From assembly GCA_903831045.1 (NCBI GenBank), contig CAIKWG010000045.1:3088-67087 (forward strand): DNA of 64,000 nucleotides, read 5' to 3'. How positions within the stretch are numbered: position 1 is the first letter of the stretch; each line of letters opens with the position of its first letter. The position numbers were made by a program, and so were the translations under genes. The stretch is from an uncultured archaeon (GTDB lineage: Archaea; Nanobdellota; Nanobdellia; Pacearchaeales; GW2011-AR1). The notes beneath the pieces are model-generated. The model made no database searches and was not told the origin of the DNA. It saw nothing but the letters and a program-made list of their open reading frames with translations. Positions 6,082 through 49,419 of the stretch are shown here, one piece after another.

Positions 6082-6605
6082 TATTCTTCTTCTCCAATTT
6101 CAATATCATTTTCATTTTCATCTTTGTCTATTTTAATTAATTGTTTTTTATTTCTTTCTGGATGCGCAGAATCAGAAAATTCTCTCGCATGCAAAACTGG
6201 TTTATTATTTTTAACAACATGAACTTCTCTAGATTTAATAACTCTTGAATTTGGTTCTCCTTCTTCACTGGTATTAAACATTAATCTAAGTCTTCCTGCA
6301 TTTTCAAAGGAGAGTCTAACCATGTCATCAATCATGCTTTCCTGATCTCTCATAAAGTCTACAATCTCACGCGGAATTGAAACAGCATAGGAATTTCCAA
6401 CCATCCTCATCTTAACATTAAATTCTTTCTGTTTAAGTCTCATAAAATTTTCATATTCAGCTTTATCCTGAGGATGAACAATAGCTTCTCCACATTTAGC
6501 ACATTTTTTTGCTCTTAGATTAAAACCATTTTTAGAAATAAGTACGGTCTCCATAGGTTTTTCACAATGCTTGCATAAAATCTGATTGTCAAATATATCC
6601 ATCAT
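6081..6605 (-). CDS. Zinc-ribbon + SpoVT/AbrB-like domain protein
   Basis: 'CKHCEKP...CAKCGE' zinc ribbon, '[16 protein letters not shown]' AbrB-type motif and an acidic tail. Its stop codon shares base 6081 with the cdc48 ATG (TAATG). Confidence 0.55.
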
Positions 6606-6702
6606 GTGTATACAGATAAGTGTATACTATTTAAATGTTTTGATAAACTTCCATTTAAATTATACACAAAATTTTAAAAACAAATCTCTTCCTTAATGTA
6701 AT

Positions 6703-7053
6703 ATGAATCTAAAAAAAATATTAGAAAATAAAAAAATTCAACTAAAGTTTAAAAAAATTAATCCAAATGAGATATTCGAAGAAGAATTATCCAAGATTTC
6801 CTTAAATTATCAAGAACAAAAAAATTTTGAAAAATACGCATTAGATGAAAGAGGCGTTCATCCATTATTTGATAAATATATTTCTGCATTTAAAAAAGTG
6901 GATGAAATACTTTTAAACCTCTCATGGGACGATGCAAGAAAATATGTTTCTTTAATGAATAGAGAAACAAATAGAGCTTTTTACTTTTCCACAATAAAAG
7001 GACTCTGGAAATGTAAAGGACCTTCTCCAGATATAGAAATTGGCCATGAATAA
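6703..7053 (+). CDS. Hypothetical protein
   Basis: 116-aa ORF with an ATG start in an otherwise empty interval. No motif recognised. Confidence 0.35.
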   Translation: MNLKKILENKKIQLKFKKINPNEIFEEELSKISLNYQEQKNFEKYALDERGVHPLFDKYISAFKKVDEILLNLSWDDARKYVSLMNRETNRAFYFSTIKGLWKCKGPSPDIEIGHE

Positions 7054-7092
7054 ATCCACCAACCTTAAAAACTAATAAATCTTTTCTATTAA

Positions 7093-7728
7093 ATGGAAAA
7101 AAGAGGGTCAAAATTTAAGAATTTCTGGAAAAAGTTTTGGTTTACAGTTTGGGGAGATAATTCATTTAAGGGTTGGATAATCTCTATAATATTTTTGTTT
7201 CTTCTAATCAAATTAGTTTTCTTCCCATTAATGAGTTTAACAACTGGAACAAAATTACCTCTGGTTATTGTAGAATCATGCTCGATGCATCATCAAGACA
7301 CAATCTTTGGAAATTTTGATAGTTGGTGGTCAAGACATGAATTGAAATATTTTAAGGTTGCAATTGATATAAATGAATTTGAAACTTTCACAATGAAAAA
7401 AGGATTTACCAAGGGAGACATTCTTTTTGTAACAGGAGTTAAACCAGAAAAAATTAAGGTAGGAGATATAATTATATTCCAAACAGATGGATACAAAACC
7501 CCCATAATTCATAGAGTAATAAGAATATATTCAAAAAATAATCAGACCATTTATAGCACAATGGGAGATAATAATAATGGGCAACTTCCTGCAGAAAAAG
7601 AGATATATGCAAATCAAATTATAGGAAAAGCAAGATTTCAATTAGTACCATATGCTGGTTGGGTAAAATTAATTTTCTATGAACCTCTTAGAGCTCAAAA
7701 TGAAAAGGGAACCTGCACTGAGAATTAA
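7093..7728 (+). CDS. Signal peptidase I (archaeal/Sec11-type S26)
   Basis: N-terminal TM segment, catalytic-Ser box 'VESCSMHH', then 'GDILFV', 'IIHRVI' and 'MGDNN'. Confidence 0.75.
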   Translation: MEKRGSKFKNFWKKFWFTVWGDNSFKGWIISIIFLFLLIKLVFFPLMSLTTGTKLPLVIVESCSMHHQDTIFGNFDSWWSRHELKYFKVAIDINEFETFTMKKGFTKGDILFVTGVKPEKIKVGDIIIFQTDGYKTPIIHRVIRIYSKNNQTIYSTMGDNNNGQLPAEKEIYANQIIGKARFQLVPYAGWVKLIFYEPLRAQNEKGTCTEN

Positions 7729-7826
7729 TAATAATCTCAAAACTCCTCTTTTAAACATTTAGCTCGTGCTTTTAGGGACACTTCATTAAACACAACTTTT
7801 TTAAACAAAAAAAGAGTAGAACATTA

Positions 7827-8141
7827 ATGGAATTTTGTCCCAAATGTGGTGCTGTTTTAGTACATAAAAAAAGTAGTAATGAATGCCCAAGATGTAAATA
7901 TGTAAAGAAAGGCGCAACATCATTAGCAACATCTGAAAAAACTTTTGAAAAAAAAGAGATTGCAATTGTAAAAGACAAAGATAAGGGAATGGATGTAATG
8001 CCAACAACCTATGAAAAATGTCCAAAATGTGGTTGCGATAAAGCATATTTCTGGTCTGTTCAAACACGGGGAAGCGACGAGGCAGAAACAAAATTCTTCA
8101 AATGTGTTAAATGCACTCATACTCGAAGAGATTATAGTTAA
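7827..8141 (+). CDS. tfs: Transcription factor S / RNA polymerase subunit M
   Basis: N-terminal 'CPKCG...CPRC' ribbon. C-terminal TFIIS-type ribbon 'CPKCGC...QTRGSDEAETKFFKCVKC' has the acidic DE loop. Confidence 0.85.
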   Translation: MEFCPKCGAVLVHKKSSNECPRCKYVKKGATSLATSEKTFEKKEIAIVKDKDKGMDVMPTTYEKCPKCGCDKAYFWSVQTRGSDEAETKFFKCVKCTHTRRDYS

Positions 8142-8170
8142 ATTAAAAAGCAATTTCTACAAAGCAACAA

Positions 8171-8179
8171 TTTTTTAAA
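8171..8179 (+). promoter_or_regulatory. TATA-like box upstream of tRNA-Lys
   Basis: 'ttttttaaa' is centred about 28 nt upstream of tRNA position 1. Confidence 0.4.
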
Positions 8180-8202
8180 CTCACTCTTGCTCAAAATACC
8201 AT

Positions 8203-8277
8203 GGCTCCGTAGCTCAGTCTGGTTAGAGCACTGGACTCTTAATCCAGGTGTCGTGGGTTCAACTCCCATCGGGGCCA
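8203..8277 (+). tRNA. tRNA-Lys (anticodon CUU)
   Basis: Hand-folded cloverleaf: GGCTCCG TA GCTC AGTCTGGTTA GAGC A CTGGA CTCTTAA TCCAG GTGTC GTGGG TTCAACT CCCAT CGGGGCC A. All stems pair. CCA is not encoded. Confidence 0.9.
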
Positions 8278-8295
8278 TAGTTCTTTAAAATAAAT

Positions 8296-8359
8296 GGAGT
8301 TGTGGTTGCTGGACTCCTAGAACCCGCTGGAGGTTGTAGTTCAACTCCCATCGGGGCCA
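8296..8359 (+). ncRNA. tRNA-linked conserved element, copy 1 (core plus duplicated tRNA-Lys 3' end); function unknown
   Basis: 8339-8361 is an exact 23-nt repeat of 8257-8279. Core 8296-8338 is ~88% identical to 35371-35413. Candidate 8-bp hairpin 8317-8324/8332-8339 with a 7-nt loop. Confidence 0.4.
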
Positions 8360-8362
8360 TAA

Positions 8363-8370
8363 TTTTTTTT
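8363..8370 (+). terminator. Oligo-T run (T8) after the tRNA-Lys/element unit
   Basis: Eight consecutive T directly after the element. Archaeal RNAP commonly terminates at oligo-T. Confidence 0.4.
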
Positions 8371-8528
8371 AGAATACATTTAAGTTAGTAATAAATTATC
8401 CGAATAATAAAAAGAATAAACTTCCTAATATAAAATATTCTTCAGAATAAATTCAGTTAAAAAACCATTTTATCTTCTAGCTTTTAACTAAACTTCTCAT
8501 TCAAGGGGCAGGTAGTAATCACCTCTAC

Positions 8529-8795
8529 CTATCGTATGATTGATTGAATCTTTTCAATAGCTTCAGCAGCTTCTTGACCTTTCTTAGTGAGTTTGATTAA
8601 TTTTATTCGCCCCTTTTTATCAAACTCAACTAATCCAAGATCTTCTAAGATCTGTAGGATCTTCACTGCGTGGCTATATGTACAATCAACTTCCTTAGCC
8701 AAAACACTACCATACCTCAATCGTGTATTCTTCTTCAGAGAGACCAACATCATTGCTGGCTTTCGTCTGAAAAAGACATCGAAATTGTCTTTCAT
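8529..8795 (-). CDS. Small winged-helix DNA-binding protein
   Basis: 88 aa. 'RYGSVLAKEVDCTYSHAVKILQILEDLGLVEFDKKGR' has an HTH-plus-wing pattern (ArsR/MarR-like). Confidence 0.5.
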   Translation of the reverse strand: MKDNFDVFFRRKPAMMLVSLKKNTRLRYGSVLAKEVDCTYSHAVKILQILEDLGLVEFDKKGRIKLIKLTKKGQEAAEAIEKIQSIIR

Positions 8796-8945
8796 TTTTC
8801 AGATTGGATATTTAATGTATATATCCTGATATATACTTCCTTTTAAACCTTTTCAAAACTCTATGTTCTAACATAGGGTTACAAGATATAGATATTAATC
8901 AGATGAGAAACCAAAATTTATTAACCTCTTTTAATATAAACAATC

Positions 8946-9548
8946 ATGAAAATACTTGCAGTGGGAGACTTACATGGAGATAGTGGCTTAGCAAGAAAAC
9001 TAGCAGAAAAAGCAAAAAAAGAAAATGTAGATCTAGTAATTATAACTGGAGATTTAACTTTTCTAGAACAATCTACTTATCAATTAATTGGACCCTTTGA
9101 AAGAGAAGGAAAAGATGTTTTGATTATTCCTGGAAACCATGAATCTAATGCTACGATGAATTTTTTAGAATCAAAATACATGAAAACAAAAAATATTCAT
9201 GGAGCTCATTCAGAAAAAAACGGAATAGGATTTTTTGGAGTTGGATATGCAACAACTGCAGGACCTTTTGCAATTGAAGAAAAAGAAATGATGCATTTAT
9301 TAAAAAAAGGTCATGAAAAGATTAAGCATTTAGAAAAAAGCATAATGGTAACCCATATGCATCCAGAAGGAAGCTCTTCTGAAAAAACAGGATTTAAGGG
9401 TTCAAGCTCAATAAAAAAAGCAATCAAAGAATTTCAACCAGATGTTGCATTGTTTTCTCATATTCACGAAGCAGGTGGAGTAGAAGATAAAATTGGCAAA
9501 ACAAGATTGATTAATGTTTCAAGAAAAGGAACTATTTTTGAGATTTAA
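8946..9548 (+). CDS. Calcineurin-like metallophosphoesterase
   Basis: Motifs 'AVGDLHGD', 'ITGDLT', 'PGNHE', 'VTHMHP' and 'SHIHEAGG'. Confidence 0.75.
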   Translation: MKILAVGDLHGDSGLARKLAEKAKKENVDLVIITGDLTFLEQSTYQLIGPFEREGKDVLIIPGNHESNATMNFLESKYMKTKNIHGAHSEKNGIGFFGVGYATTAGPFAIEEKEMMHLLKKGHEKIKHLEKSIMVTHMHPEGSSSEKTGFKGSSSIKKAIKEFQPDVALFSHIHEAGGVEDKIGKTRLINVSRKGTIFEI

Positions 9549-10396
9549 TTTCTCTTTCCAGATTCAAAGGCTCTTCGAGTTGCTTCTTTCATTTTAATTA
9601 AATCTTCTAAAGAAATATTTTTAAAATTATTCTCAAGGTACATTTCAACTGCCCCAATTAAATCTGATAATTCTTGCAAGGCCATTAATTTATTTTCCTG
9701 AGTAACTGCATCCTTAAATTCTAAAAATTCTTCATTAATCTTAGAATAACTTCCTATTTCTCCTTTGGGAATATCCTTTAGATGGTATGATTTTTTTTCC
9801 AATCCCAAAACTTGACTAAGCCTAGGTTCTGCAACACCAGTTCCATATATCCAAGAAAAATTATCGTAATTTCTAAGCCCATAAGATCCAAGTTCAATTT
9901 GACTTTTCTTAGATAGTATATCTTTTCCTTCAAAAGTATCGATTATTTCAATATCAAGATATTTTTTAAAAAAAGACTCTGCTGTCTTTAAAACATCATG
10001 AACATTATTTTCAAATTTGTCCTTAGAAAAGTTCCCATATCCCAAGAAATCAATAAGCTCTACTTTCTCAAACCAATTAAAGTGAAGATTATCAAGAATT
10101 TTTTCATCTCTGAAACAAGGAGTACAACAAACATATTTTCCAGGAACCAATTTATTCTGCATTATTAATTCTAAAAAAGATTGTTCTCCAGAAGCAACAT
10201 TACATCCAAGAAAATTATCAAACAATTTAACTCCTTTTGGAGCAGTTATTGTATTTGCTTTTTCAGAAACAATCCATGGCACTTCAAGATATTCAAAACC
10301 TTCTGAAACATAAAACTCAATAGCATGAGAAATCTTAGAGTAATCTATTTTAAAATTACTCTTCAAAAAGTGTTCCAAATAAGGTTTTAATTCCAT
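9545..10396 (-). CDS. Class II aminoacyl-tRNA-synthetase-like catalytic core fused to MazG-like all-alpha NTP pyrophosphohydrolase domain
   Basis: Motif 1-like 'EGFEYLEVPWIV', motif 2 'CFRDE..LHFNWFEKVE' and motif 3-like 'GTGVAEPRLSQVL'. C-terminal 'EEFLE-x15-ELSD' acidic pairs. No tRNA-binding domain. Confidence 0.55.
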   Translation of the reverse strand: MELKPYLEHFLKSNFKIDYSKISHAIEFYVSEGFEYLEVPWIVSEKANTITAPKGVKLFDNFLGCNVASGEQSFLELIMQNKLVPGKYVCCTPCFRDEKILDNLHFNWFEKVELIDFLGYGNFSKDKFENNVHDVLKTAESFFKKYLDIEIIDTFEGKDILSKKSQIELGSYGLRNYDNFSWIYGTGVAEPRLSQVLGLEKKSYHLKDIPKGEIGSYSKINEEFLEFKDAVTQENKLMALQELSDLIGAVEMYLENNFKNISLEDLIKMKEATRRAFESGKRN

Positions 10397-10952
10397 TTTC
10401 TATTTTTTTTGAATATTTAATAATTTCAGTTAAATCTCTATTTCCATAAATAATTCCAACTTCCCCATCATTAGTTTCCCCCTTGAATTCGCAAGCCACA
10501 CAAGGATTTCTCAGAATAGAATCTTTATCAGGATTAGAATCAATACCCATAGGAGATTTACAAGTATGCCTTAATTTCCAAGTTAATTCTTCTGTTTTCC
10601 GATTATAATTTCCCCCAAGATAGGGATACTTTCCAGAAATCAAAATAGATTCTGGATGAAATTCAATTAGATAATTGATTTTATTTGCATTGACTTTTAT
10701 TTCAGAAATATTTCCATTTTCAATAACCAATTTTGCAAGATTGATTTTAAGCTCTCTATTTGAAGTTTCAAAATACAAATTTAATAGTCTATACTCATTA
10801 TTCATAGCATTATACTTATCCCAAACGTCTCCAGCAAGCTCACTTCCATAATCTTCAACTATACTTTTAGTAAGTTGATATTGATATTCTACTTCTTCCT
10901 TTAATTTTTCTATTCTTTTCTTTAATTCTAGTTCAATTTTTTTATTTTCCAT
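10356..10952 (-). CDS. ORFan, coiled-coil N-terminus (operon paralog family, member D)
   Basis: 198-aa ORF starting with 'MENKK' inside the repeated junction. Its C-terminal 'LTEIIKYSKKIENGIKTLFGTL' resembles the tails of the 11597-13315 proteins. Confidence 0.5.
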   Translation of the reverse strand: MENKKIELELKKRIEKLKEEVEYQYQLTKSIVEDYGSELAGDVWDKYNAMNNEYRLLNLYFETSNRELKINLAKLVIENGNISEIKVNANKINYLIEFHPESILISGKYPYLGGNYNRKTEELTWKLRHTCKSPMGIDSNPDKDSILRNPCVACEFKGETNDGEVGIIYGNRDLTEIIKYSKKIENGIKTLFGTLFEE

Positions 10953-11172
10953 TTTCCACTTCTCCTTCCAAACTTTTTTGTTTTTTGTAAGCTACACAGT
11001 TAAGATAATCGTCACATCCCGAATCACAATCTGGATGACCTTGAGGCATTCCATACTCTCCATAATAGGTTCTTAACGTACAAACATAACTTCCTAAAGA
11101 AGAGTAAAGTAAATCATAACCCTCAAATTGAGAGTATGGACAATCTTTTCCACATTGTTTTTTATTTTCCAT
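10942..11172 (-). CDS. Cys/Tyr-rich mini-protein C1 (CPYS family)
   Basis: ATG at 11172 gives 'MENKKQCGKDCPYSQF...'. It has 6 Cys and ends 'EGEVENGK'. It overlaps both neighbours by 11 nt. Confidence 0.5.
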   Translation of the reverse strand: MENKKQCGKDCPYSQFEGYDLLYSSLGSYVCTLRTYYGEYGMPQGHPDCDSGCDDYLNCVAYKKQKSLEGEVENGK

Positions 11173-11374
11173 TTTCCACTTCCTTTTCTTTTTGCATTCG
11201 ATAAACTTCACATTCAAGATGATTAGTTTTTGGACAAATAAGATATCCTAAAGGTTCATAATAATGATCATAAAGTATTCCTAAAGGAAGACATTGATAA
11301 TTCCCTAGAGAACGCAGAGGATCATAAAGATCAAATTTAGAATAAGGACAATCCTTTCCACATTGTTCATTCAT
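11162..11374 (-). CDS. Cys/Tyr-rich mini-protein C2 (CPYS family)
   Basis: ATG at 11374 gives 'MNEQCGKDCPYSKF...'. It ends 'KEVENGK' and is a paralog of C1. Confidence 0.5.
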   Translation of the reverse strand: MNEQCGKDCPYSKFDLYDPLRSLGNYQCLPLGILYDHYYEPLGYLICPKTNHLECEVYRMQKEKEVENGK

Positions 11375-11600
11375 TTTTGACTTCCCCATCCAATTTAATT
11401 TTATTAAGATATTCTAAACATTTCAAATATTCTACACATTCACATCTCAAAAAGATAGATTCGTTCGCAAGAGCATTCTTATTTTCTTGAATAGTACATT
11501 CCCCATATTCTATTGGAAATGGAATTCCAGGAGAGAGATAATAATCTTCATAGTCAATAAGGACGTAAGGACAACCTTCAGAAAAACTATTTGTTATCAT
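11367..11600 (-). CDS. Cys/Tyr-rich mini-protein C3 (divergent CPYS family)
   Basis: '...SEGCPYVLIDYEDYY...' with 5 Cys; ends 'LDGEVKNE'. ATGA overlap with the upstream gene. Confidence 0.45.
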   Translation of the reverse strand: MITNSFSEGCPYVLIDYEDYYLSPGIPFPIEYGECTIQENKNALANESIFLRCECVEYLKCLEYLNKIKLDGEVKNE

Positions 11601-12124
11601 CCTACCAACATCTCACTCATTTTAATTATATTTTTAAGCTTAGCCATTATAGATGGTTTCAAATTCTTAGATTTATAAAAATCCAATAATTTTTCATAAG
11701 AATTAGGAAAATTTATTCCAGATTTAGAATTATACTCATACAGAACATTCATTTTTCTTTTTGCAGCATCTTCATCCTTTAACAAAATATCAACTGCAAA
11801 TTCTCCTATTGGTTTTGAAGCAGAGAATTTAAATCCCTTAGTATAGAATTCTTCAGGTTTATTCTCTCTATCCCAAGGATGCATAATTTCAAAACCTTCT
11901 TGTAAATTAACTACCTCACATTCTAGCATTTGAGAATAATCAGAAGTGTAAATTTTTAATTCTTTTTCCAGTTGAGAAAAAGATAAAACTGGAAATCCAA
12001 TATTTTCCAAAAACCCTTTCAATTTTTCACTATCCTTAATTTGCTTTTCTAAATCTTTTTTTTCCTGCTCCAAAGATTTAATATAATCATTCATTTCATT
12101 AAACGAAGTTAAAGCCATATCCAT
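11597..12124 (-). CDS. ORFan, coiled-coil N-terminus (operon paralog family, member B)
   Basis: ATG at 12124 lies 1 nt after the upstream stop (track start 12175 overlaps it by 50 nt). The tail 'YEKLLDFYKSKNLKPSIMAKLKNI' resembles A1/A2. Confidence 0.5.
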   Translation of the reverse strand: MDMALTSFNEMNDYIKSLEQEKKDLEKQIKDSEKLKGFLENIGFPVLSFSQLEKELKIYTSDYSQMLECEVVNLQEGFEIMHPWDRENKPEEFYTKGFKFSASKPIGEFAVDILLKDEDAAKRKMNVLYEYNSKSGINFPNSYEKLLDFYKSKNLKPSIMAKLKNIIKMSEMLVG

Positions 12125-12125
12125 T

Positions 12126-12746
12126 TTACCAACAACTCCATTCACTTTCTTCAGGATTTTTCTTCCTAATTTCATTTATTTGATTATAAAGACTCAAAAG
12201 CAAATCCTTCTTTACACCATGATTTTGATAAAATTCAATTATCTTATCAACATGCACAGGATGAGTTCTTTGATATCTCTCCCAATCACCATGAAGAGAG
12301 GCTCCAGAAACAGTATGTTTAGTTTGATATATTACATTCAGATAATCATATGGTCCAACATCGTGCTCATGTCTGCAAAAAATAGGCATCATCAGTTTAG
12401 AGTTTTCATCTTTTAATTCAAAGTAAAAATCAAAAATGCAAAATTTATCTTCATCACTATAATTTATTCCAGAATAATTATAACGCCCTCTTGCTTCTTC
12501 TATTTTAATTTTTTCTGCAAGCGAGTAATCCCTTGAAATAAATTCTTCTCTTTGAAAGCTTTTTCTTGAATGCCCAACCAACCTCTCGTCAGTCAAAGTT
12601 TCTACTAAGATTTCCCCAGAAAATTTCCTTAAAATTTCTGTTTGATTTTTTAATTTTTCAAGATTTTCTAAAATTTCTGTTTGATTTTTGATTCTCTCAA
12701 ATTCTTCTATTTTAGGTTTGAAATATTCTTCTAATTTTTTTGTCAT
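12126..12746 (-). CDS. ORFan paralog A1
   Basis: Clear paralog of 12743-13315 ('RDYSLAEKI', 'FCIFDFYFELKD', 'FCRHE', 'FYQNHGVKKDLL'). ATGA overlap with A2. Confidence 0.55.
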   Translation of the reverse strand: MTKKLEEYFKPKIEEFERIKNQTEILENLEKLKNQTEILRKFSGEILVETLTDERLVGHSRKSFQREEFISRDYSLAEKIKIEEARGRYNYSGINYSDEDKFCIFDFYFELKDENSKLMMPIFCRHEHDVGPYDYLNVIYQTKHTVSGASLHGDWERYQRTHPVHVDKIIEFYQNHGVKKDLLLSLYNQINEIRKKNPEESEWSCW

Positions 12747-13315
12747 CTTCTTCCTCCAAGAATTATTTCAGCAGGCTTTGCTTTTCGAAGATCATTTATT
12801 TGCGTATAAAGGTCAAAGAGAAGTTCTTTTTTTACTCCTTTAATTTCATAAAAACTTATTATTTCATCGAGAGGTTTTGGATGAAATCTTCTGGTAGTTT
12901 CAAATTCATCATAATGACCTCGATAAGAAGTATGAGTATTATAGATAACATTCATTTTATCAAATTCAAGATTTTCATGTCTACAATAAACTGGAATGCA
13001 AAGATTATATTTATCATCTTTTAGTTCAAAGTATAGATTAAAAATACAGAATTCTTCGTCATCTGAATCTTTCACTCCTCCAGGAGTATAGTGCCCAGAT
13101 AGGTTCATTATCTGGATTTTTTCTGCAAGTGAATAATCTCTGGTAATACACTCTGCTCTCTTTCTATCACGCTCATTATATCCAGAAAGCTGATCAGTTA
13201 AAGTATCTATGAATAGCTCTCCAGGAAATTTTTCAAGAAGTTCTTTTTGTCTTTTTATTTTCTCAAGCTCGTCTAATTTAGGTTTGAAGTGTTCGTCTAA
13301 GTTTTTTGTTACCAT
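12743..13315 (-). CDS. ORFan paralog A2 (first gene of operon)
   Basis: 190 aa. Shares 'RDYSLAEKI', 'FCIFNLYFELKD', 'YCRHE' and 'FYEIKGVKKELL' with A1. Confidence 0.55.
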   Translation of the reverse strand: MVTKNLDEHFKPKLDELEKIKRQKELLEKFPGELFIDTLTDQLSGYNERDRKRAECITRDYSLAEKIQIMNLSGHYTPGGVKDSDDEEFCIFNLYFELKDDKYNLCIPVYCRHENLEFDKMNVIYNTHTSYRGHYDEFETTRRFHPKPLDEIISFYEIKGVKKELLFDLYTQINDLRKAKPAEIILGGRR

Positions 13316-13423
13316 CTTAATTATCCCTAGACTTGTATTATTAATGACTCTTTCTGTACAAAATTTGTCAATAGTGTTGTATAAAACATAAAATATTATA
13401 AATAGAAGAAATCAAGAAACATT
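13316..13423. promoter_or_regulatory. Divergent control region between the ORFan operon and the wHTH regulator
   Basis: 108-bp AT-rich gap between head-to-head starts (13315 minus, 13424 plus). TATA-like 'tattataaata' lies ~25 nt upstream of 13424. Confidence 0.4.
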
Positions 13424-14266
13424 ATGCTAAACAATGAAACAATTCAAAAAATAGAAAAATTTGTTTCTCAAAAACCAAGAAGTGTTCAAGAGATTGCAAC
13501 ACATCTGGATAAAAATTGGAGAACTGCAGATAGATATATCAAAGAAATTGAAGATGAAACAGGAACAATCTCCACACGAACATTTAGAGAAGGAACCAGA
13601 GGAGCACTAAAAATTGTTTATCTTCTGAATCCAGATAAAATAAGCTCTTCAAAATTCCAAGAAGAATTAGAAGAAAGAATAATGAGACTTAGAAGAAAAG
13701 AAGAATTCTCTGCTTTTGATATATTCCAGTGTGTTCCAGAAAAAAATAAATTAGCAATTGTAGAAGAAGAAATATCCGAAGCATCTACTAATCTTCAAGA
13801 ACTAATATCTATCCTAAATGGAACAGAAAAAGAATTAAAACTCTTTTCAGGAAATCTTTCTTGGATTAATCTAAAAAAAGGAAAAATAGATTTATTCAAT
13901 ACATTAGAAAAACTTGTAAAAAGGGGAGTTAGAATTAAGGTCCTTTGTAGAGTCGATTTAGATGGGGTAGATAATATAAAACAAGTTTTACAATTAAATT
14001 ACAAATATGGGAAAGAACTAATAGAAATAAGACACCGAGAGCATCCAATTAGAGCATTTGTCATTGACAATACATCAATCAGATTGAAGGAAATAAAAGA
14101 ACCAACAGGGAAGATAAAAGAATTAGATAAAAAGAAATTTATCTTTTATACCATCCGAGATAAAGAATGGGCAGAGTGGCTATCAAAGATATTCCTTAAA
14201 ATGTTCAACACATCAATTAGTGCTGAAAAAAGAATCACAGAGCTAAATAAACTCATAAAAAAATAA
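13424..14266 (+). CDS. Putative transcriptional regulator (N-terminal winged helix, TrmB-like architecture)
   Basis: 'PRSVQEIATHLDKNWRTADRYIKEIE' HTH. The C-terminal ~170 aa are unassigned and resemble TrmB-type effector domains only loosely. Confidence 0.45.
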   Translation: MLNNETIQKIEKFVSQKPRSVQEIATHLDKNWRTADRYIKEIEDETGTISTRTFREGTRGALKIVYLLNPDKISSSKFQEELEERIMRLRRKEEFSAFDIFQCVPEKNKLAIVEEEISEASTNLQELISILNGTEKELKLFSGNLSWINLKKGKIDLFNTLEKLVKRGVRIKVLCRVDLDGVDNIKQVLQLNYKYGKELIEIRHREHPIRAFVIDNTSIRLKEIKEPTGKIKELDKKKFIFYTIRDKEWAEWLSKIFLKMFNTSISAEKRITELNKLIKK

Positions 14267-49301: not shown

Positions 49302-49419
49302 GCCCTGATAGCTCAGTTGGTTAGAGCGAACGGCTGTTAAGTCAGAGAAAAACTGACTCACAAGAAATTGTGATTTCGCAGCAACCGTTAGGTCGTAGGT
49401 TCGAGTCCTACTCGGGGCG
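49302..49419 (+). tRNA. tRNA-Asn (anticodon GUU) with 44-nt intron at canonical 37/38 position
   Basis: Exon 1 is 49302-49339 (GCCCTGA TA GCTC AGTTGGTTA GAGC G AACGG CTGTTA). The intron is 49340-49383. Exon 2 is 49384-49419 (A CCGTT AGGTC GTAGG TTCGAGT CCTAC TCGGGGC G). Confidence 0.85.

Follow-up and report, generated by a model that had tools for sequence, protein, structure and literature searches.

Do eight genes that run into one another without gaps on a single strand of an archaeal contig constitute one dedicated system, or do they combine parts with different histories? The question is raised by a block at positions 9545-13315 in a 64,000-nucleotide stretch of DNA from an uncultured archaeon of the Pacearchaeales (contig CAIKWG010000045.1), the whole stretch being referred to here as the window. 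In order of transcription from the minus strand, the block encodes seven proteins without annotated relatives (A2, A1, B, C3, C2, C1 and D) and an enzyme (E), and it faces a divergent gene (R) for a putative winged helix-turn-helix (wHTH) regulator. An earlier note, made from the sequence alone, had taken all eight genes for one dedicated system whose enzyme might act on the small cysteine-rich products. Our preferred explanation, to which we assign a probability of about 0.6, is a composite operon in which a lineage-specific, duplicating, non-enzymatic cassette (A2 through D) is joined to a separable ligase/pyrophosphatase shared with phages (E), both lying in a variable slot gated by a regulator.

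Separable parts of a probable coupled operon

The eight genes are almost certainly real and part of one translationally coupled operon, judging from their reading frames and junctions. The eight minus-strand open reading frames (ORFs), the divergent gene and every junction described in the earlier note were reproduced at the same coordinates in the ORF listing and the sequence, and the tight coupling that it proposed was borne out by seven gap-free junctions with no gap longer than 1 nt. A2 (12743-13315; 190 aa) and A1 (12126-12746; 206 aa) share an ATGA overlap at 12743-12746, as do B (11597-12124) and C3 (11367-11600; 77 aa) at 11597-11600. Between A1 and B the junction reads TAA-A-ATG (12122-12128) and yields a B protein of 175 aa; an alternative ATG at 12175 would give 192 aa, and orthologs of 161-177 aa back the shorter form. 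Further downstream, C3 overlaps C2 (11162-11389; 70-75 aa, with its start at 11389 or 11374) by 8 or 23 nt, C2 overlaps C1 (10942-11172; 76 aa) and C1 overlaps D (10356-10952; 198 aa) by 11 nt each, and D runs 41 nt into E (9545-10396; 283 aa). According to a crude gene call over the whole window, only 9 of the 44 remaining same-strand junctions leave 1 nt or less between genes, and the longest other run comprises two such junctions versus seven here. A run unmatched in the window implies that the arrangement is more than a consequence of an overall compact genome. GC content is even across the window (~29-32%), the cassette matching the remainder, and none of the block's proteins, those of the cassette included, has a membrane-compatible hydrophobic segment; most are acidic.

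Gene content was then compared among related loci, designated here by L numbers. Cassette orthologs occur in the same order in five other contigs. All gene types of the block are present in L001/L053, where E is 82% identical and R is followed by A B C C D E and by a convergent metallophosphoesterase gene (MPE). In L037 (R 90% identical) the genes between R and MPE are A B C C D, D running directly into MPE without E, and in L038/L052 (R 90%) they are A B' B C D', likewise without E; L045 (R 72%) has only an A-like and a D-like gene in this position. In L003-L006 and L015 (R 72-75%, E 55-57%), the two genes lie side by side in divergent orientation, E being followed by a 221-aa radical S-adenosylmethionine (SAM) gene, after which L003-L006 carry a C-like gene and a zinc-ribbon gene, without A, B or D. 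The pairing of R with E is kept in L009, L010 and L011 (R 35-41%). E without the cassette was found at 31 genome loci and in 278 phage genomes, and C genes without E in L037, L038 and L054. The co-occurrence looked for in relatives was found for all gene types in L001/L053 and is not obligatory, E and the cassette being separable. The proposal of one dedicated eight-gene system does not withstand this comparison, since close relatives carry the cassette without E and most E homologs lack A, B, C and D.

A duplicating, fast-evolving cassette

By profile comparison, A2, A1 and B constitute a single unannotated protein family, defined here as A-like. A2 and A1 are 49% identical, and a hidden Markov model (HMM) of 28 A-like members, built without B, matched A2 at E 2e-62, A1 at E 2e-56 and B at E 2e-10, with no match to D. 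Direct comparison of the B and A profiles using hhalign gave a probability of 87.6% (E 3.5e-6, 75 columns). Members are 150-240 aa long and are recognized by an N-terminal helix together with the motifs (S/T)xDYSLA, (V/I)Y(C)xH and FYxxxGVKxxLL, which appear in A2 as DYSLA, YCRH and FYxxxGVKxxLL. B, the divergent paralog, is missing the CRH motif and is 58-76% identical to its orthologs. Where the earlier note had counted four coiled-coil paralogs, with a tail motif common to D and A/B, three remain (A2, A1 and B): D has no detectable relation to A, B or C (hhalign probability against A/B at most 0.2%), and no such common motif was found. The D protein consists of an N-terminal coiled-coil segment and a conserved core in which His129, Cys131, Cys151 and Cys154 are invariant, in a pattern like that of a zinc site. 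L038 and L045 encode the core without the coiled-coil segment, in proteins of 160 and 127 aa respectively.

The three mini-proteins are Cys/Tyr-rich as originally described, each carrying four conserved Cys along with 7-9 Tyr, and are paralogs of one another; C1 and C2 are 51% identical, and C3, the most divergent, stands at 29%. C1 is the best-conserved copy and shares 61-83% identity with its orthologs. Both C and D may bind metal. SCIFF/ranthipeptide-type precursors of ribosomally synthesized and post-translationally modified peptides were considered for C1-C3 and rejected, there being no radical SAM/SPASM maturase in the operon and no peptide-family match.

The cassette families are narrowly distributed. 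Close A-like members number 6 and C members 11 among 5.8 billion proteins, and an exhaustive search of 1.84 billion proteins returned 25 A-like representatives at E of at most 0.001. About 22 distant A-like homologs occupy other archaeal chromosomal contexts, some of them alone in unrelated surroundings. The placement of all seven non-enzymatic proteins outside described families was upheld, with no known family for A, B, C or D in Pfam, NCBIfam, PHROGs, PADLOC or PDB sequences; for the C1-C3 peptides the best NCBIfam/Pfam hit, Lepto_8Cys, reached an E of 0.1 and does not count as a match. Across the 28 A-like members there is neither an invariant catalytic residue nor a Pfam family common to all. 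Scans of IMG/VR viral contigs with three A-like sub-alignments recovered no A-like copies, and profiles of the A-like and C alignments had no significant match in the PDB; ~35-residue matches of A-like profiles to an alphavirus macro-domain (E 0.25-0.8) were taken as noise.

Repeats within the block point to how it has grown. A perfect 25-nt direct repeat lies at the C1/D junction (10938-10962) and at the C2/C1 junction (11158-11182), a spacing of 220 nt that corresponds to one C gene. The repeat carries a purine-rich stretch (ribosome-binding site) and the ATG of the next gene, and it is the footprint of a recent tandem duplication. The conserved tails of the C proteins (..EGEVENGK) are explained by their coincidence with this repeat, at once a translational-coupling signal and a duplication footprint rather than a protein motif in common with A, B and D. 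Its perfect copies at both junctions also explain why C1 and D begin with the same residues, MENKK. A1 contains a 39-nt tandem repeat of its own (12630-12707, copies 82% identical), which produces a 13-residue duplication in its N-terminal helix. Such patterns indicate that the cassette has been amplified by tandem duplication.

Ratios of nonsynonymous to synonymous substitution (dN/dS) against orthologs, which are rough values with dS near saturation, were 0.32-0.38 for A, 0.20-0.37 for B, 0.11-0.30 for C1 and 0.34-0.50 for D, compared with 0.20 for E, 0.04-0.07 for R and 0.05-0.08 for MPE. The cassette range of 0.11-0.50 therefore marks genuine coding genes under purifying selection that evolve several-fold faster than the flanking genes. 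The value for E is consistent with relaxed constraint in this lineage and with the lack of E at the corresponding position of two close relatives.

A predicted ligase/pyrophosphatase shared with phages

On the basis of its predicted structure, E is a class II ligase core resembling seryl-tRNA synthetase (SerRS), fused to a predicted nucleoside triphosphate (NTP) pyrophosphohydrolase of the MazG type. This agrees with the earlier note. The AlphaFold2 (AF2) model, made from a 63-sequence alignment, has a predicted local distance difference test (pLDDT) score of 94; residues ~17-197 form a minimal class II core of ~180 aa and residues ~200-283 a MazG-like all-alpha domain with three long helices (217-279). 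Foldseek comparison with the PDB returned the catalytic cores of PylRS, SerRS and PheRS (E 6e-9 to 1e-7, probability 1.0), and a PDB sequence-profile search gave SerRS cores as the best matches (E 1e-4). Motif 2, TPCFRDE (R96), and motif 3, GTGxAEPR (here GTGVAEPR; G187 and R192), are invariant in 63 homologs; they correspond to the class II consensus fRxE and GxGxGxxR, whose arginines bind ATP. The fusion homologs also conserve metal-binding motifs of the EExxE...ExxD type (NEEFLEFKD and ELSDL). Curated family models scored below threshold for both halves: tRNA-synt_2 at 18 bits (cut-off 25) and tRNA-synt_2d at 13.7 (19.8) among the Pfam class II aminoacyl-tRNA synthetases (aaRS), and PRA-PH at 14.9 bits (cut-off 21.3) and TIGR03188 at 17.4 (42.7) among the MazG models. 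With the sub-threshold aaRS scores, and with no additional domain for tRNA or anticodon binding in the model or the alignment, E does not look like a bona fide aaRS.

The closest relatives of both halves are found in phages. E matched PHROG 4806, annotated "histidyl/seryl tRNA synthetase" (~185 aa), at E 5.8e-39 over profile positions 2-184 of 190, and PHROG 6408, MazG-like and without an annotated function (~83 aa), at E 1e-30 over positions 2-82 of 83, so that each half corresponds to one PHROG over its full length. A phage match in BFVD reached a TM score of 0.89, and a phage "MazG-like domain protein" was among the matches. The two domains form an adjacent-gene module in phages, mostly with the MazG-like domain first and as a separate gene, whereas here and in other DPANN archaea and candidate phyla radiation (CPR) bacteria they are fused, the aaRS-like domain preceding the MazG-like one. 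A tblastn search located the pair in 278 phage genomes, in almost all cases as genes next to each other, and 273 phage records spanned at least 80% of E. In the phages inspected it lies near ribonucleotide reductase (RNR), NadR-like and PnuC genes.

E has at least 287 homologs, and within the genome collection the family is found in Nanoarchaeota/Woesearchaeota, in many CPR bacteria and, scattered, among other bacteria. Its two domains are fused there or split into adjacent genes in either order, and therefore probably work together. The neighbors are usually nucleotide-handling genes: AAA_28 kinase, small MoaA/viperin-like radical SAM, NrdR, RNR and NadR/PnuC genes. Given the domains and these recurrent neighbors, the substrate of E is most likely of nucleotide type, or an amino acid plus a nucleotide, and independent of A, B, C and D. 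A literature search found no published function for the aaRS-like/MazG-like pairing or for operons of kinase, CYTH and radical SAM genes, and no experimental function for PHROG 4806 or PHROG 6408.

Several neighborhoods of the E family were recorded alongside. In Erwinia phage Hena1 (L132, 3995-8048) the MazG-like/aaRS-like pair lies a few genes upstream of genes for a NadR-type NMN adenylyltransferase and a PnuC transporter, and AAA_28 (NadR-kinase-like) genes adjoin the family in archaea and CPR bacteria. A gene for an NrdR-type repressor (zinc ribbon plus ATP-cone) is divergent beside E in L008 (6698-7159), L014 (6665-7105) and L031 (3396-3842), and hints at control by nucleotide pools; the first two are CPR loci with a radical SAM gene between the NrdR-type gene and E, and L031 is also a contig of a bacterial metagenome-assembled genome. 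In the Saccharibacteria loci L017, L022, L024, L028 and L030 (~6500-8900) AAA_28 kinase, MazG-like and aaRS-like genes face away from a wHTH-Nudix gene and adjoin two large genes, whose products of ~1260 and 935-1057 aa have the length of RNA polymerase subunits. The wHTH-Nudix arrangement is the bacterial counterpart of the layout anchored by R.

The slot anchored by a putative regulator, and competing explanations

R (13424-14266, plus strand) encodes a 280-aa protein with an uncharacterised C-terminal domain, and its putative wHTH assignment comes from weak matches to HTH_11 (16.6 bits, cut-off 25) and to a profile of the PH1932 regulator (E 0.004), itself a wHTH protein. Relatives that carry the cassette have R proteins 87-90% identical to this one; in more distant archaea the identity is 35-75%, and the gene is always divergent from a variable operon. 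The divergent gene and its orientation across 108 bp agree with the earlier note. R is not specific to this operon and has at least 163 relatives in metagenomes. Within the intergenic region (13316-13423) there are two TATA-like boxes, each ~25-30 nt upstream of a start codon, a spacing that implies leaderless or short-leader mRNAs, and between them lies a 32-nt imperfect palindrome centered on TGTACA (13342-13373). An intergenic block, TTTTGTACAGAAA..GTCA..AAT.AT.CA.GTCT, is conserved in five cassette loci and in the R-E intergenic regions of L003/L015, and in the window it forms the palindrome just described. The R-proximal DNA is homologous in loci that start with A and in those that start with E. 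From these elements we infer promoter and operator roles for the region.

A metagenome scan with the R profile yielded the relatives counted above, of which 80 loci were kept, and slot content was determined in about 60 related contigs by ORF calls and clustering of the genes divergent from R. AAA_28 kinases are present in 31 of the R-divergent operons, radical SAM proteins in 17, CYTH proteins in 15, A/B-like proteins in 10 and E in 7, in addition to P-loop kinases, a SAM methyltransferase, MiaB-like radical SAM and zinc-ribbon proteins and several families without matches. In L046 (R 40%), L100 and L054, AAA_28 and/or radical SAM genes lie in one operon with A-like genes. By comparison of gene content and order, R is thus the conserved anchor before a mosaic, changing operon. 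Using hhalign, the A-like, B, C and D profiles showed no relationship to the slot families without assignment F6, F8, F9, F13, F15, F18, F19, F23 and F25.

The slot of L054 (2483-7837; R 78%) holds a 13-gene R-divergent operon. Besides two A-like genes and one C-like gene, it encodes a 298-aa radical SAM protein, a P-loop kinase and a HAD-type protein, and it contains several ORFs of 55-80 aa whose tails repeat "YDLN" and "KLEEGVK". A zinc-ribbon family of ~95 aa (CxxC...CxxC, tail SYPFGGSDF) without family match recurs in R-divergent operons at L003 9841-10128, L015 10277-10564 and L055 7362-7649. At the same operon position, the 106-aa C-like protein of L003 (9540-9860) and an unrelated 194-aa protein of L015 (9703-10287) have a common 31-residue N-terminal helical module that is 65% identical, which suggests that such modules are exchanged among different C-terminal domains.

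The far boundary of the slot is formed by MPE (8946-9548, plus strand), which is convergent with E, overlaps it by 4 nt, and often ends the R-divergent operon, many loci having this convergent arrangement. Past this boundary, a gene for an 88-aa wHTH protein (8529-8795, minus strand) is a conserved neighbor of the slot in many loci; it matches PF22665 and, in PADLOC, the wHTH domains of regulators associated with CARF (E 7e-5), in both cases weakly. Elsewhere in the window, a 118-nt tRNA at 49302-49419 (Rfam 58.8 bits, not reported by ARAGORN) is most likely an intron-containing archaeal tRNA, which agrees with the Nanoarchaeota affinity of the neighbors in marking the organism as archaeal.

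Under the composite-operon explanation, the block would be transcribed as a single leaderless message from a promoter region held in common with divergent R. Its first part would be the lineage-restricted, fast-evolving, soluble and apparently non-enzymatic cassette, whose A, B, C and D products would be made in fixed ratios and assemble together, as coupling and helical N-termini suggest. The second part, E, would be inherited separately, from a family common to phages, CPR bacteria and DPANN archaea, and would act on its own substrate, apart from the cassette proteins. Both would be cargo between R and convergent MPE, in a slot whose content keeps changing across Nanoarchaeota-type genomes. 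R probably binds the palindromic operator overlapping the cargo promoter and, on sensing a small ligand, may turn all of the slot on or off.

Several points weigh against this explanation. The evidence for assembly of A, B, C and D comes down to translational coupling and coiled-coil or helical N-termini, and transcription, promoters and R binding are likewise deduced. The one structure prediction made on a cassette protein, an AF2 model of A2 from a six-sequence alignment, reached a pLDDT of only 41. The absence of E from genomes of the L037 and L038 types holds for the sequenced contigs, as distinct from whole genomes. Moreover, A-like genes, C-like genes and E recur in the same regulated slot, and in L003 a C-like gene follows E and the radical SAM gene; some functional tie between the cassette and the enzymes is therefore possible.

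It could instead be that the R-anchored slot is a hypervariable antiviral or symbiont-host conflict locus, in which the enzymes make or destroy modified nucleotides and A, B, C and D serve as a lineage-specific, non-enzymatic set of sensors, effectors or inhibitors under diversifying pressure. Defense-island-type loci hold variable cargo flanked by conserved genes, and this slot resembles them in that R, MPE and the wHTH gene are conserved as flanks around content that turns over, evolves fast and duplicates. Turnover between genomes with flanks 87-90% identical, cassette dN/dS values 3-8 times those of the flanks, paralog amplification, exchange of N-terminal modules between different C-terminal domains and the spread of the E family over 278 phage genomes all favor such a locus. 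The radical SAM neighbors in the slot also score best against MoaA, viperin and pVip models, and related loci have an AAA_28 kinase followed by such a small radical SAM gene, as in pairs of pVip with a nucleotide kinase. However, the pVip and viperin scores are just 22-36 bits, far under the cut-offs, and both genes are absent from this window; a pVip reading was not adopted, and the likeness is a lead on the slot and not on the eight genes. A search of ten proteins against PADLOC-DB 2.0 gave no significant defense match (none below E 0.002) for any window protein, the weak ones covering only HTH or PLD-like stretches of R and the 88-aa wHTH protein. The slot differs from defense islands in having no recognized defense genes and no recognizable nuclease, TIR, pore or other effector, in that its cargo appears to be under one regulator and promoter, and in that much of the cargo elsewhere is nucleotide-metabolic. 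In addition, all cassette dN/dS values are below 1, IMG/VR viral contigs yielded no A-like gene, and simple salvage of nucleotides or NAD by genome-reduced organisms would also suit the slot enzymes. We consider a conflict locus rather unlikely, while an accessory or conflict role, the other suggestion of the earlier note, is possible for the cassette.

A more elaborate form of this idea, which we offer as speculation and think unlikely, is that the slot represents an undescribed regulator-gated hypervariable locus of DPANN archaea for nucleotide-based conflict. Its interchangeable enzymes (AAA_28, CYTH, viperin/MoaA-like radical SAM, and aaRS-like plus MazG) would synthesize or break down unusual nucleotides or aminoacyl-nucleotides, A, B, C and D would be new non-enzymatic sensors or effectors replacing or complementing them, and phages would carry E as a counter-measure or as a captured form of this chemistry.

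It is improbable that all eight genes form one system in which E adenylates or aminoacylates the Cys-rich mini-proteins. Two precedents were compared. Amino acid:carrier-protein ligases of the SerRS-like type have no tRNA-binding domain and are ~300 aa long. E shares with them the class II fold, motifs 2 and 3 and the missing tRNA-binding domain, but its core, at ~180 aa, is much smaller than these ligases or SerRS cores, and the MazG-like fusion is not known to be a feature of those enzymes, which were reportedly described by Mocibob et al. in 2010. This type of system was set aside, as neither a PP-binding nor any other Pfam domain was found in C1-C3, D, A or B, nor a PP-binding domain in the neighbors of homologs. 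The second precedent is EpmA (PoxA/GenX), a truncated paralog of lysyl-tRNA synthetase (LysRS) which, together with the radical SAM lysine aminomutase EpmB, modifies elongation factor P. E likewise stands as a truncated class II aaRS paralog beside a radical SAM gene in six archaeal and CPR lineages, but is SerRS-like rather than LysRS-like; the pair was rejected, with no radical SAM gene (of SPASM, KamA or other type) in the window and partners in relatives of 221-256 aa that score 21 bits against the EpmB cut-off of 369. The tight coupling up to and into E, its intact class II ATP-binding motifs and the joint presence of C and E in the window and L001 speak for a link, and the C-like gene after E and the radical SAM gene in L003/L006 is the only hint of one between E and C. 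On the other side, C occurs without E in three loci, E without C in nearly all of its at least 287 homolog contexts, phages and bacteria included, and the relaxed dN/dS of E accompanies its absence from the equivalent position in two close relatives. The suggestion that the enzyme acts on the mini-proteins is accordingly not supported.

Finally, a remnant of an integrated virus or mobile element, or a set of spurious or decaying ORFs, is largely excluded for the seven non-enzymatic genes: their lack of annotated homologs and narrow spread would fit, but order and frames are conserved in five other contigs at dN/dS below 0.5, base composition follows the rest of the window, no integrase, flanking repeats, PHROG or viral-contig matches were found, the chromosomal position behind the same promoter is constant, and distant A-like homologs sit in other archaeal chromosomal contexts.

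If the composite-operon explanation holds, what had been proposed as an eight-gene system resolves into a lineage-specific cassette and a separable enzyme, and that headline claim is weakened. The minimal SerRS-like core with its MazG-like partner emerges as a widespread module of phages (278 genomes), many CPR bacteria and DPANN archaea. Few class II cores with intact ATP motifs are as small as that of E, whose fusion and neighbor patterns make it directly testable. Many Nanoarchaeota-type genomes place a conserved putative regulator before an operon that turns over between close relatives, and this slot mixes nucleotide-handling enzymes with unannotated families, the A-like family included. 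The R-anchored slot is therefore a place to look for nucleotide or conflict handling in genome-reduced archaeal symbionts.

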